Of a stretch of 64,000 nt of DNA, positions 19,656 through 46,812 are shown one piece after another. The stretch covers positions 224,001 to 288,000 of the forward strand of contig CAXXOU010000004.1 of NCBI GenBank assembly GCA_963677495.2. The letters run 5' to 3'. This DNA is from Candidatus Cloacimonadales bacterium. Lineage in GTDB: Bacteria > Cloacimonadota > Cloacimonadia > Cloacimonadales > JAFGVF01. Positions within the stretch are counted from its first letter, which is position 1, and every line of letters starts with the position of its first letter. The notes beneath the pieces were generated by a model. That model was not told where the DNA came from. It did not search any database and was given only the letters and a program-made list of their open reading frames with translations. The position numbers and the translations under genes were made by a program.

Positions 19656-19702
19656 GTTTTAGTCAATAGCCACGTTTCGTAGAACGTTTCTCCGGAACGT
19701 TT

Positions 19703-19900
19703 GACCCGATAGGGTCACAAAATACTAGCCAATGGGTCCACGACCCATGGACATGAAACAATGAGACCGCAATCCGATTAGGATTGCACTAATCCCATTC
19801 CCCAAACAGAGGTATAATGCAATCCATGTAGGATTGAAATTACATTAACCCAGACCATGGATCGTGGACCCATTGGCTAGTATTATGCTTTCCTCCGGAA
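19703..19900. repeat. REPIN-like doublet (inverted REP pair)
   Basis: 30-bp arms 19721-19750 and 19855-19884 are reverse complements at 29/30. Confidence 0.85.
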
Positions 19901-20216
19901 AGAGATTGTAACAGTAGCTCGAGTCCATCTCAGTCCTACTGGTGACAGCTTCGAAAACACTGCTGTCTGCATTTTAGGAAGTCCGTTTCCGCTACGCAAG
20001 CTACGCATCAGACAAACTCCCTGAAATGCGATCAATTCCTCCGAATTGTACATTTGCAATAACCCCTTATCTCTTCCGTAAAGCCTGTGAATTACTTGAC
20101 ATGTTATTTAATCTCTTTAATTATTGTACTGCAACTCATAAGGAAAGAAAGTTAATAAACGATTTATTAGTCTATAGGATAATTGATAGAGATTCTTAAA
20201 ATGATTTGGAGTAGTT

Positions 20217-35042: not shown

Positions 35043-35119
35043 TGGGGTGGCTGACGGGACTTGAACCCGCGACAACATGAGCCACAATCATGTACTCTGC
35101 CAGCTGAGCTACAGCCACC
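35043..35119 (-). tRNA. tRNA-His(GTG)
   Basis: Cloverleaf with G-1, anticodon GTG, encoded CCA. Confidence 0.95.
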
Positions 35120-35134
35120 ATATGATAGAAAAAA

Positions 35135-35211
<77 letters not shown>

Positions 35212-35261
35212 GCATTCTTGTATATAAAATGTGCTTATCTTACGATAAGCAGTTAAATTCT

Positions 35262-35338
35262 TGGTAGCGGCGCAGGGACTTGAACCCCGGACACTCGGAT
35301 TATGATTCCGATGCTCTAACCAACTGAGCTACGCCGCC
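35262..35338 (-). tRNA. tRNA-Met(CAT), elongator type
   Basis: TCGGA-ATCATAA-TCCGA anticodon arm, paired 1:72 (Ile2 not excluded). Confidence 0.9.
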
Positions 35339-35339
35339 A

Positions 35340-35416
35340 TGGTAGCGAGGGGAGGATTTGAACCTCCGGCCTTTGGGTTATGAGCCCAACGAGCTACCTA
35401 ACTGCTCCACCTCGCG
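35340..35416 (-). tRNA. Initiator tRNA-fMet(CAT)
   Basis: C1:A72 mismatch, three G-C pairs in the anticodon stem. Confidence 0.95.
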
Positions 35417-43685: not shown

Positions 43686-45122
43686 TTATACTTTAACCCT
43701 TTTCCAACCACCACCCAAATATACAATAAAACTTAAGATAGAGATAAGGAGATTACTGACTACCATAGCCCAGAATAGGCTGTCATAGCTGTATGGTTTT
43801 ACTATATTTGAGAGTCTATCAAACAGATTGGGCATGAGGTTATATATCACAGGGAACTTCTCGTATATTTTACCTGCTAGAATATAGGTCAAAGGAATTC
43901 TGAAGAGCCAAAGTCTTGAGATGTTTAAAAGCATAGTCGGTCTTGTATACCCTGACCCGTTAAAGACTCCATTAAAGACAAAGACAAAGCTAAAGAGGAA
44001 TGTTGCCAATGATGTTATCTTAAACATCCTCGCACCATGTTTTATGACTTCAGGGTCATTTATGAATAGAGAAATAAGTTCACCACCAAAGAAGAAGATG
44101 ATGGAACAACCAAAAGTCATAATCACAACGATAGTACCTAACGCGTGTAAGACACTCTTCTCAGCTCGGTGAATCTTCCCTGCTCCCAAGTTTTGTCCAA
44201 CAATAGACGATAAAGCATTGCTTAAGCCCATTGATGGCATCATGAAAAAACCTGTGAGTCTATTTCCTAGGGAGAATACACTAATAACCAATGTACCGTA
44301 AGTATTAACGAAACCCTGTAGCAGCAAGAAGCCTAAACTGGTTATAGACTGAGATATCGATGCAGGGATGCTTATACTGATAATTGTCTTTAACAATTTT
44401 GGATTGGGGATAAAGTCTTTTGGGTGTGGAATCAGAATTGGTGCTTTCTTCTTTACATAATAAAAGGCTAAGCCTGCACCTAATACTCTGGAAAATACTG
44501 TTGCCCAAGCAGCTCCCATTATTCCGTATGCCGGTAAGAGTCCAAACCCGAATATGGCAATTGGATCTAAGACTATATTACACGAAACTGATATGAGTGA
44601 GATAACCATTGGAGTAATTGTGTCTCCTAAGCCATGTGAGAAACTCTGATAACTCATAAATATGAACATAAACGCCATCCCAATCATGACAATTTGGATA
44701 TAGCTTATAGCGTCAGCTCTAATCGCTTCGGGAACTTGCATTAACACAACAATATTATCAATAAATAGTAAAGCTACTATTAGAAAGACTAAAGTGAAGA
44801 GAGTAAGTAACAAAACAAACTGTCCGGTCACCAGTTTAATCTTCTCAGATTCATTAGCTCCTTTATACCGAGAAACAAGTGCAGTCCCGGCAACCATGAA
44901 TCCAAACCCGAACGCCATAATGGTGAAAACTATCGGGAAAGCTAATCCGACAACAGCAACTGCTTCCAAAGCATCCGTTGGCATTTTACCCAACCAAAAA
45001 GCGTCAGTCAGATTATAGATTGTCTGAATAAGGTTTGCTAGCATTATTGGGAGAGCAAGCTTAATCAGATTAGATAGTATGGGTCCGTTTGTTAGGTCTT
45101 TACCTTGGTTTTGTTCATTCAT
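43686..45122 (-). CDS. MATE efflux transporter
   Basis: LTNGPI..LALPIM, YNLTDAFWLG, LDPIAIFG, GQNLGAG. Confidence 0.93.
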   Translation of the reverse strand: MNEQNQGKDLTNGPILSNLIKLALPIMLANLIQTIYNLTDAFWLGKMPTDALEAVAVVGLAFPIVFTIMAFGFGFMVAGTALVSRYKGANESEKIKLVTGQFVLLLTLFTLVFLIVALLFIDNIVVLMQVPEAIRADAISYIQIVMIGMAFMFIFMSYQSFSHGLGDTITPMVISLISVSCNIVLDPIAIFGFGLLPAYGIMGAAWATVFSRVLGAGLAFYYVKKKAPILIPHPKDFIPNPKLLKTIISISIPASISQSITSLGFLLLQGFVNTYGTLVISVFSLGNRLTGFFMMPSMGLSNALSSIVGQNLGAGKIHRAEKSVLHALGTIVVIMTFGCSIIFFFGGELISLFINDPEVIKHGARMFKITSLATFLFSFVFVFNGVFNGSGYTRPTMLLNISRLWLFRIPLTYILAGKIYEKFPVIYNLMPNLFDRLSNIVKPYSYDSLFWAMVVSNLLISILSFIVYLGGGWKRVKV

Positions 45123-45260
45123 GCAGTCACTAAATTATCCTATCAGAACTTGACTATCTTTTTCTTTAACTCATTTAACTGAGTCTGACATTAGTCGCAT
45201 ACCCTATCACGGGTTTACCCGTTGTATATTGACATTATATGATTAAATAACAGGATTTGA

Positions 45261-45405
45261 AAAAGAATAAGGGAAGATGAACAAGCTATATGACCCGTTG
45301 AGTCCACAAACTCGTTAGCCATGTTTAGCCCATCTTCCACTTAGTCTGAACAGTACATTGGGCATTAAAGCCCGTATTTTACAATGATAGACTACTTGTT
45401 CTTTT
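45261..45405 (+). ncRNA. IS110 bridge RNA (target-binding and donor-binding loops)
   Basis: Outer stem 45261-45271/45395-45405, stems ggaagatg/catcttcc and tagtct/agacta, each with an inner hairpin; guide segments match target and donor junctions. Confidence 0.85.
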
Positions 45406-45426
45406 ATTTTTGTAAAGGAGAATATT

Positions 45427-46410
45427 ATGAAAAAGAAAGTGATTGGAGTAGATGTATCAATGGAGAAGCTAGATATAGTGATTTACGATGGGAATAAGCA
45501 CAAGCATTCGATAATTGATAATACTCCAAATGCCTTTGAAAGATTCTTAAAGCGATTTGCTTCCGGCTCTGTTCATATATTCATGGAAGCAACTGGTGTC
45601 TATCACATTCAGATTGCTGTTAAAGCTTATGAACTAGGTCATAATATCTATGTAGTTAATCCTCTTGTTATAAAGAGTTTTTCTGATGCTATGATGAGTA
45701 GAGCTAAGACGGATAAAGTAGATGCTAAGATGATTGCTGAATATGGATACAAATGTGATTATAGACCTTTTACTCCATCATCAAAAGCAAGATTAGAGTT
45801 GTTGGAACTATTAAGAGACTATAACTATTTAATAGAAATACAAACCAAGATAACCAATCGTATTCATGCATATAAGCATGGTTTACAAGTGTCTAAAGAT
45901 GCTCAAAAAGTTCATAAATCACTACTTAAAGAGATCAAGAAAAACATTTTCATGCTAAAGAAAGCCATCGAACAAATAGTAGTTAAAAGCTATCACAGGA
46001 TATATAATAAACTTATTGCAATCAAAGGTGTAGGAATTATGACTATTGCAACAGTTATTGCTTTTTATGAAGATTTCACAGATTTTGAGACATCAAAACA
46101 AGCTATTTCTTTTGCTGGTATGAATCCACATATTCGGCAATCGGGAAAAAGTCTTAGGGGACGCGGAAGTATAAGTCGAAAAGGTAGCCCAGAGATTAGG
46201 AGAATGCTATACTTAGCTGCGGGAGTAGCCAGGATACATAATCAGTATTTTCAAGAGTTTTACGTCAGATTAAGAAGTAGAGGTAAAAGTTATAAGCAAG
46301 CAATAGTAGCTGTGGCCAATAAGCTTCTACGCCAGATCTTTGCCGTTGTTAAGTATGACAGAGAATGGATACCTAATTATGCTTCATTAAAAGAACAACT
46401 TGGTGCATAA
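45427..46410 (+). CDS. IS110 DEDD recombinase/transposase
   Basis: IGVDVS, FMEATG, AKTDKVDA, IKGVG, QSGKS, AVANKL. Confidence 0.96.
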   Translation: MKKKVIGVDVSMEKLDIVIYDGNKHKHSIIDNTPNAFERFLKRFASGSVHIFMEATGVYHIQIAVKAYELGHNIYVVNPLVIKSFSDAMMSRAKTDKVDAKMIAEYGYKCDYRPFTPSSKARLELLELLRDYNYLIEIQTKITNRIHAYKHGLQVSKDAQKVHKSLLKEIKKNIFMLKKAIEQIVVKSYHRIYNKLIAIKGVGIMTIATVIAFYEDFTDFETSKQAISFAGMNPHIRQSGKSLRGRGSISRKGSPEIRRMLYLAAGVARIHNQYFQEFYVRLRSRGKSYKQAIVAVANKLLRQIFAVVKYDREWIPNYASLKEQLGA

Positions 46411-46812
46411 CAATCTGAATGTAATAGTATTGTGGACAAGTATCGTTCGGAGATAACTTATCCACAATCCATGCCTAATGGAGCTCTTCACTTAAGCTCC
46501 AATAGTCGTGGTGTGGAATGTGGGTAAGTTAAGATACTTGCCCATGATGCTATGGAATGTAGTCTGATTTAATATTGTTAAATTATAGAATATTTTATTG
46601 ACGTGAGATACAGTACATGGTAAATCCGTGGAAAGATATCAGTTTAGTACTACACATCTGTCCCGATTCTGTTTAAACTCAAACAATTCTGGAAAATAAT
46701 TGACTTATATGCTTAGTAAGAAATACTGACATCAAACGAAAAGATAGGTTTAGGTTTTTTAATGGTGATGAAAAGCAAGATTTTAATTCTCAGTTCTAGA
46801 AGGTTTAATAAA

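Follow-up and report, generated by a model that had tools for sequence, protein, structure and literature searches.

An IS110-family insertion element, its predicted bridge RNA and the palindromic repeats of a Candidatus Cloacimonadales genome

The closest described system to the locus analyzed here is IS621, whose bridge RNA targets REP elements in E. coli (Choi 2003, cited in Durrant 2024, PMC11208160). According to the passages on natural targets in the latter article, 144 of 173 IS621 insertion sites lie in REP elements, and the common natural target differs from the sequence encoded by the loop at one A/G position (PMC11208160). The sections on the core in a further article describe its second base as a nearly invariant T while the first varies, and report GT, AT and TT cores as active; top strands are cut just after the core, and in each right guide the core complement is followed on its 3' side by two bases that act as handshake guides (Hiraizumi 2024, PMC11208158).

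We analyzed a stretch of 64,000 nucleotides (the window) comprising positions 224001-288000 of contig C4 in the 3.4 Mb genome G000; coordinates given without a contig are window positions. The window contains an IS110-family element and, at 19700-19915, a hairpin repeat. According to the original prediction, the bridge RNA of the element is programmed against REP-like repeats, and the hairpin arms are its empty target sites. The general idea of a REP-like target stood, but the family concerned is an abundant palindromic one, here referred to as the CCGTGG family (40 loci), and not the low-copy hairpin. Taken as a whole, it is very probable that the element homes by bridge RNA into the CCGTGG family of its host, and that the feature at 19721-19884 is the stem of a hairpin of about 215 bp from a small dispersed family and not a programmed IS110-family target.

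Judged from its sequence, the element appears to be the same kind of system as IS621, and REP-like targeting by an IS110-family bridge RNA is already known. Both have a recombinase with DEDD and Tnp domains (E = 1.9e-30 to IS621, 8wt6), and a 5' leader with two internal loops, each running from a left guide with its core through a stem to a right guide with the core complement, followed by two handshake bases. In both, the second core base is T, the target is a dispersed palindromic repeat and the pairing at the natural target is partly by wobble. They differ in that the core is AT (donor) and GT (target) here but CT in IS621, and the right target guide has 7 bases instead of 4. Moreover, the present host is an uncultured bacterium, its target, an 11-bp-phased CCGTGG array, was restricted to this species in a search of 41 genomes, no RAYT gene was seen beside the CCGTGG copies (none of the 14 Y1 matches within 1.8 kb), and the present copies carry different cores at their two junctions, GT on the left and AT on the right.

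The IS110-family element and its leader

The element in the window (copy A) and its flanks have the following features, all on the plus strand; the loops were assigned from the fold.

45208..45222, plus strand: left flank of copy A, the left half of a short CCGTGG-type palindrome
45214..45222, plus strand: left target TTTACCC (45214-45220), then the target-derived core GT (45221-45222)
45223..46618, plus strand: copy A of the IS110-family element, 1396 bp including the right-hand core AT (46617-46618)
45271..45338, plus strand: target-binding loop, from the fold and the alignment of seven leaders, with left guide and core GACCC-GU (45292-45298)
45299..45324, plus strand: remainder of the target loop, with stem (45299-45313), right guide GUUAGCC (45314-45320), core complement AU (45321-45322) and handshake bases GU (45323-45324)
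45342..45394, plus strand: donor-binding loop, with left donor guide and core ACAGUAC-AU (45350-45358)
45380..45387, plus strand: remainder of the donor loop, with right guide UACA (45380-45383), core complement AU (45384-45385) and handshake bases GA (45386-45387)
45427..46410, plus strand: recombinase gene, 327 amino acids, with DEDD RuvC-like and Tnp domains
46619..46631, plus strand: right flank of copy A, right target GGTAAAT and then the right half of the palindrome

The genome has four matches to the IS110 DEDD domain, one of them inside the window. The recombinase encoded there matches PF01548 at 5.5e-25 and PF02371 at 3.8e-22, both above the cut-off; residues 5-309 align with the IS621 recombinase at the E value given above, and the match to ISCro4 (9t56) has an E value of 5.8e-31. 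Residues D9, E54, D96, D99 and S239 are identical in the ISCro4 alignment and are presumably equivalent to D11, E60, D102, D105 and S241 of IS621, as numbered in the parts of the IS621 literature used here. Copy B (C2:338137-339544) is 98% identical to copy A. The two differ at 27 positions, all within 45672-46622, so the leader is identical in both. Two more copies, C and D, located close to the end of C4, show 71% DNA and 58% protein identity to the window copy. Copies A and B lack long terminal inverted repeats, and their left core is GT and their right core AT; lineage C/D and the related elements from five other genomes carry AT on either side.

The fold of the leader consists of two stem-loops that both contain an internal loop, with a z of -2.4 that would be weak evidence by itself, and the consensus fold of seven related leaders gives the same two-loop layout as copy A. 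Both donor guides correspond to the ends of the element itself (ACAGTAC-AT and TGTA). With its domains, catalytic residues, core and loop-guide pairing, the element at 45223-46618 can be classified as an IS110-family element with a predicted bridge RNA. The words previously proposed as guides, gacccgttg (45292-45300), tagcca (45317-45322) and tacaatg (45380-45386), indeed lie in its 5' non-coding part. The pairing of tacaatg with cattgta is also real, but cattgta is the element's own donor junction (GTAC-AT plus TGTA) and is not specific to the hairpin. In Rfam the leader matched no family: only 4 tRNAs were matched at gathering score, and nothing credible was obtained over 45100-46700 at E values up to 10. 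A cluster of four tRNA genes lies at 35046-35416 on the minus strand.

Searches for close relatives gave 3 loci in genome contigs and 6 loci in metagenome contigs, with identity of at most 32% in each, and when the proteins of 203 genomes of the order were searched, no match outside G000 exceeded 44% identity. The exact lineage A/B is known from only two insertion sites. Among contigs of four public runs (one sample) that carry the element, no joint, circle junction or empty site was found, and the loose ends in these contigs reflect only copies B and C/D. None of the four runs is recorded as RNA.

Several further observations concern the ends of these elements. Joining 46598-46618 to 45223-45230 would create TTGACG, 17 bases and TATATT, which by eye resembles a sigma-70 promoter and would exist only in a circle or tandem form. 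The joined ends of lineage C/D (TTGACG, 16 bases, TATAGT) and of the related element L024 (TTGACT, 17 bases, TATATT) read similarly, again by eye. In the right non-coding end, an 80-120-bp piece with a hairpin (46428-46548) is conserved between lineages A and C and matches G001:C1:365398-365519 and 236741-236821 at 83-85% identity; despite these matches, G001, a genome of the same genus, has no recombinase relative at E<=1e-40. In L018, a Bacteroidales MAG contig, the region upstream of the recombinase gene contains the right end of a distant IS110 relative (CACAGTAT-CT) immediately next to the left end of the same element (CGTATGTTTG). This junction is head-to-tail, as in a tandem dimer or an assembled circle, and its core is CT as in IS621. 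At the left junction of L024 (genome G174), the first 16 bases of the element (TGTATATTGACATCAT) occur twice in tandem.

Register of the core and the CCGTGG repeat family

The target predicted originally, GACCCGTTGGCTA, is by our comparison of junctions and guides one base out of register, and the correct core would have T as its second base. The earlier guides, gacccgttg and tagcca, had been joined by an overlap on TG, while the evidence here, from lineage C/D and from five other genomes, sets the core two bases earlier. The left junction of lineage C/D reads GGGACC-AT-TGTATAG and the right one ACAGTAC-AT-TCGAAAGG. The corresponding target is present uninterrupted as the 16-mer GGGACCATTCGAAAGG at C4:1496635 and C4:67121, and its 15-base core occurs at two further loci of the genome. 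Since AT is present once in the uninterrupted target, AT is the crossover core. The left flanks of copies C and D are identical over 48 bp and the right flanks over 191 bp, so the two copies go back to a single insertion event followed by duplication, not to two events.

The surroundings of C and D (G000:C4:1492300-1498640) are themselves repetitive. The two copies are identical over 1626 bp, including the 48-bp left flank and a 191-bp right-flank unit, and stand 4.1 kb apart in a mosaic of repeat modules with occurrences at dozens of loci (62 blastn rows). The arrangement looks like a segmental duplication of an insertion within a repeat cluster.

The five elements from other genomes (L021, L022, L023, L024 and L025; 41-44% protein identity) have the same arrangement. 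In each, AT directly precedes a left end of TGTAT or CGTAT, the right end reads AGTAC-AT before the right flank, and the right guide complements its own right flank, as follows.

L025: right guide UUUCAA-AU, flank AT-TTGAAAGG (AT-TTGAAA)
L024: right guide UUCGCA-AU, flank AT-TGCG
L021 and L023: right guides UUCAGG-AU or UUCAGA-AU, flank AT-CCTGAC
L022: right guide UUCGGG-AU, flank AT-CCTGAG, paired via wobble

Their left guides end in CC-AU or UC-AU and match the left flanks. In 6 of the 7 leaders the left guide ends in two bases complementary to those that end the right guide (AU/AU), the remaining one being copy A with GU/AU. A TG register is self-consistent only in copy A, because its stem starts with UG and its right target starts with G.

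Copy B leads to the same register. When it is excised with the AT/GT core, the site is collinear with all 25 of the repeat-family rows compared, while excision with TG requires a one-base insertion relative to every one of them. A TG core would also place G at the position where IS621 has a nearly invariant T, which counts against it. The pre-insertion sites in the AT/GT register are TTTACCC-GT-GGTAAAT for copy A and TCAACCC-GT-GGTTAAG for copy B. Thus, the occupied site given previously, TACCCGTTGGTAA, is not a pre-insertion site, as one T was counted twice; the correct form is TACCC-GT-GGTAA. The two registers differ in what they predict: the circle junction would read ACAGTAC-AT-TGTATATT in the AT/GT register and ACAGTACA-TG-TATATT, with one T fewer, in the TG register, and TG also implies an empty allele of site A or B reading CCCGTTGGT. 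An empty orthologous site for copy A or B was not found. In G001, the genes flanking the copy A locus stand 75 bp apart, with neither element nor palindrome between them.

In the AT/GT register the programmed target is (G/A)ACCC-(G/A)T-GG(C/T)TAA, also given as ACCC-GT-GGT(T/A)A. It corresponds to an 11-bp subunit of the CCGTGG palindromic family, which is abundant and built of CCGTGGTNNAC words, in the 11-bp forms CCGTGGTTAAC, CCGTGGTTTAC and CCGTGGTCAAC, with a typical end of GGTCAACCCGTGGTCAAGTATGCC. The 86 bp directly to the left of copy B belong to this 40-locus family (blastn E<1e-8, 85-95% identity). Its loci are matched on both strands, i.e. they are palindromic, and 39 of the 40 lie outside any open frame of 100 codons. 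Copy B was inserted in the last word of a family member, and beyond copy B the consensus of the family resumes in the right flank GGTTAAGTATGC. Copy A interrupts a 28-bp palindrome made up of such words, which matches family members over 24 bases at 91.7% identity.

We then scanned the genome in the AT/GT register, allowing G-T and U-G wobble and at most one unpaired base among positions 3-15. As a result, 95 sites were obtained, 60 of them in the CCGTGG family, whose intervals sum to less than 8 kb of the 3.4 Mb genome. Complete pairing over the scanned positions is seen at site B and at just 4 of the sites present in the genome. Site A, unpaired at positions 3 and 13, would fail the threshold of the scan itself. 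The right guide pairs with the CCGTGG repeat only through two wobble pairs, and under a strict Watson-Crick count the best genome sites include two arms of a hairpin-family copy other than the one in the window (C4:612984 and C4:613126). The word ACCCGTGGT occurs 77 times in the genome versus 2 for ACCCGTTGG. The junction sequences, the register, the pairing of guides with target and the enrichment of sites in the CCGTGG family are all established by these comparisons.

The CCGTGG family resembles REP/BIME sequences in being dispersed, multi-copy (40 loci), extragenic (39 of 40) and palindromic, and in serving as an IS110-family target. It differs in that its units consist of 85-95 bp of 11-bp words, as against single hairpins of 20-40 bp. 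An association with RAYT, known for REPs, was not observed: although the genome has 14 Y1-transposase (PF01797) matches, 13 of them above the cut-off, none comes within 1.8 kb of a CCGTGG copy, and the nearest hairpin copy is 8.8 kb away from one. These 14 matches fit a genome rich in REP-type repeats, yet none adjoins either family. The CCGTGG family was absent, at E<=1e-6, from 40 relatives, including three species of the same genus.

We propose the following course of events for the element. A bridge RNA from the 5' end would carry the target loop (GACCC-GU ... GUUAGCC-AU-GU) and the donor loop (ACAGUAC-AU ... UACA-AU-GA), and the recombinase would exchange strands at a two-base core with T second; both element copies would in this way have landed in CCGTGG-family words. 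The RNA would presumably be produced from the leader, and a circular intermediate may be formed in which TTGACG, 17 bases and TATATT make up a junction promoter across the joined ends. By analogy, recombination probably proceeds as for IS621.

The hairpin repeat at 19700-19915

The hairpin element and the copies of its family are as follows; no strand is assigned to the first three features.

19700..19915: hairpin (long inverted-repeat) element of about 215 bp, from alignment with other copies, DNA fold and flanking genes
19721..19750: left arm of the long stem, holding the reverse complement of GACCCATTGGCTA at 19726-19738
19855..19884: right arm of the long stem, holding GACCCATTGGCTA at 19867-19879
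Full copies of the family: window 19700-19915, C4:612959-613171 and C1:563052-563250
Truncated copy: C4:85142-85277
Fragments: C2:106727, C4:352582, C2:115017 and C4:242026

In a single-stranded DNA fold of 19695-19920, a long stem of about 30 bp (19721-19750 with 19855-19884) encloses two small internal hairpins. The fold energy is -54.7 kcal/mol (z -11.5), which none of 200 shuffles equalled. Alignment with the other loci shows that the unit of about 215 bp has one small hairpin at each outer end. A nhmmer profile made from the three full copies recovered these and about 5 partial copies in the genome, together covering only about 1.5 kb. Therefore, 19700-19915 is a low-copy hairpin repeat: the family is palindromic by its fold, and REP-type abundance is absent. 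What had been described as a REP doublet is accordingly the two arms of one stem.

On one side of the hairpin lies a pyrimidine-nucleoside phosphorylase gene and on the other a gene with a T9SS sorting domain. In G001, synteny at this locus stops after the upstream gene, and no match to the locus was obtained in G002 and G003. The element is like MITE-like long-inverted-repeat elements in its size of about 215 bp, non-coding nature, arms of 30-50 bp, few dispersed copies and co-varying arms; it is unlike them in that no target-site duplication and no parent transposon were identified. Likewise, it shares palindromic structure and dispersal with REP/BIME sequences but differs from them in having only 3 full copies. 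Both arms of each hairpin copy share one variant (CCAATGGGTCC in the window, CCATGGGGC in the copy at C4:613k), so the arms change together, as if the stem were maintained or copied from arm to arm.

The presence of GACCCATTGGCTA on both arms was confirmed, as was its 12/13 match to GACCCGTTGGCTA, from which it differs at one position where a G-T wobble is possible. Outside the two arms this 13-mer was not found anywhere in the genome, and the other full copies carry CCCCATGGCTA or CACATGGCTA at its position, lacking the second T. This T matters for the pairing. At offset 2, pairing with the arm is seen for the left guide (02222212) but fails for the right guide (220200020), and offset 3 gives the opposite result. 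In other words, the left half site GACCC-AT pairs at 7/7 positions including the core, one of them by wobble, and the right guide then meets TGGCTAG and fails; shifted by one base, GGCTAG pairs with the right guide and the left guide fails. Owing to the extra T, the two half sites of each arm, GACCC-AT on the left and GGCTAG on the right, are spaced one base too widely to be read continuously, and the arms are no target sites in the correct register. Their seemingly better fit compared with the occupied site arose from counting the loop-closing stem bases UG (45299-45300) as guide. Moreover, none of the four element copies in the genome overlaps the hairpin family.

How the resemblance between arms and guides came about can be explained in several ways. 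Somewhat better than even is the chance that it is pure coincidence and that the hairpin is unrelated to the insertion element. In the window, matches to GACCCGTTGGCTA with up to 2 mismatches number 2 against 0.43 expected, and 8 of 100 window shuffles reached at least this count; the two matches are the arms of one inverted repeat and hence not independent. Across the genome, three sites (the two arms and C4:304885) lie within 1 mismatch of the 13-mer predicted originally, about as many as base composition predicts by a rough hand estimate (about 1.5), and the choice of where the guides end had been free. Against coincidence, the 95 best sites obtained with the correct register include three arms of other hairpin copies. 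This would be unlikely in about 1.5 kb of family sequence unless a relationship exists between the CCATGG words of the hairpin and the CCGTGG words of the target, as may be the case.

It is rather unlikely, but conceivable, that the hairpin family is a secondary or ancestral target, in which copies without the extra T are usable and the window arms are rare half-match off-targets. The three arms just mentioned, C4:612984 (minus strand), C4:613126 (plus strand) and C2:106763 (minus strand), stand near the top of the 95 predicted sites with one unpaired position each, although the family occupies so little of the genome. At C4:612984 the right guide pairs fully by Watson-Crick pairs, with a single mismatch on the left. 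On this sequence comparison, these copies are reasonable candidate targets. For the window arms, the 7/7 pairing of left guide and core with one wobble is relevant, as a match over the core plus one arm can support IS621 insertion according to the portions of a 2026 preprint consulted (10.64898/2026.08.31.748434), so that rare use of these arms may occur. However, that result concerns IS621 in a cell-free system plus re-analysis, as described in a preprint without peer review. Furthermore, none of the four copies was inserted in the hairpin family, and the core G of the left guide fits CCGTGG, not CCATGG.

The least probable reading by far, with core TG, guides GACCCGUUG and UAGCCA, ideal target GACCCGTTGGCTA and the hairpin arms as empty full-match sites, can call on the single wobble-compatible difference between arms and target and on guide ends that agree in copy A alone, but it does not hold for 6 of the 7 leaders compared, conflicts with the uninterrupted C/D targets, has G for the nearly invariant T, requires a one-base insertion at site B relative to 25/25 family members, relies on a 13-mer missing from every other hairpin copy, and is matched by neither the A nor the B insertion.

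Guides, host repeats and unlike cores

The homing of the element into CCGTGG repeats is part of a wider picture, as related elements, too, have targets that are present in multiple copies in the respective hosts. When one mismatch is allowed, CGTCATCCTGAC occurs 13, 24 and 38 times in G186, G191 and G192, versus 1, 1 and 0 for a reversed-pattern control. Similarly, GGACCATTYRAAAGG, at the same mismatch tolerance, has 34 occurrences in G000, 28 in G003, 13 in G002 and a single one in G001, with control counts of 0, 2, 0 and 0, respectively. In G003 the common variant ends in TTTGAAAGG, and the guide of its element is UUUCAA; in G000, 4 exact sites end in TTCGAAAGG, and the guide of lineage C/D is UUUCGA.

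Copies A and B both have GT at the left junction (45221-45222 in A), which is the target core, and AT at the right junction (46617-46618 in A). AT is the core in three of the four guide cores and is used by all relatives. If top strands are exchanged immediately 3' of the core, GT is expected to end up at the left junction and AT at the right one; this was seen in 2 of 2 events, which is weak evidence.

We tentatively suggest, as a joint reading that we hold to be possible but less probable than its negation, that the bridge-RNA guides of this clade follow the repeat families of each host and that the unlike cores of A and B reflect a process in which only the top-strand exchange is inherited. 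On this reading, a few guide substitutions would retarget sister elements to the locally common variant of a palindromic module, for example UUUCGA where GGACCATTCGAAAGG occurs and UUUCAA in a sister species dominated by variants ending in TTTGAAAGG. Lineage A/B would then have jumped to a different, 11-bp-phased array, found in this species only among those searched. The unlike cores bear on the single-strand, copy-and-paste transposition put forward in the consulted parts of the preprint (10.64898/2026.08.31.748434), and if the reading is true, they would be a natural record relevant to whether elements of this kind transpose in that way.

The preferred reading, in which CCGTGG repeats and not the hairpin are the target, also illustrates that delimiting bridge-RNA guides matters for target prediction, since an error of one base in the core made a non-target look like the best target. 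The element would be a case, from outside Proteobacteria, in which RNA-guided insertion is naturally tuned to a REP-like family. Further features are a core that is AT/GT and not CT, and the covariation of guides and targets across six related insertions, one being that of lineage C/D and the others coming from five other genomes, one each. Its 7-base right guide, wobble pairs and unlike junction cores would be natural variants of features that are being engineered in bridge recombinases. Finally, 11-bp-phased arrays and hairpin modules are hereby linked to a mobile element that probably uses them as landing pads.
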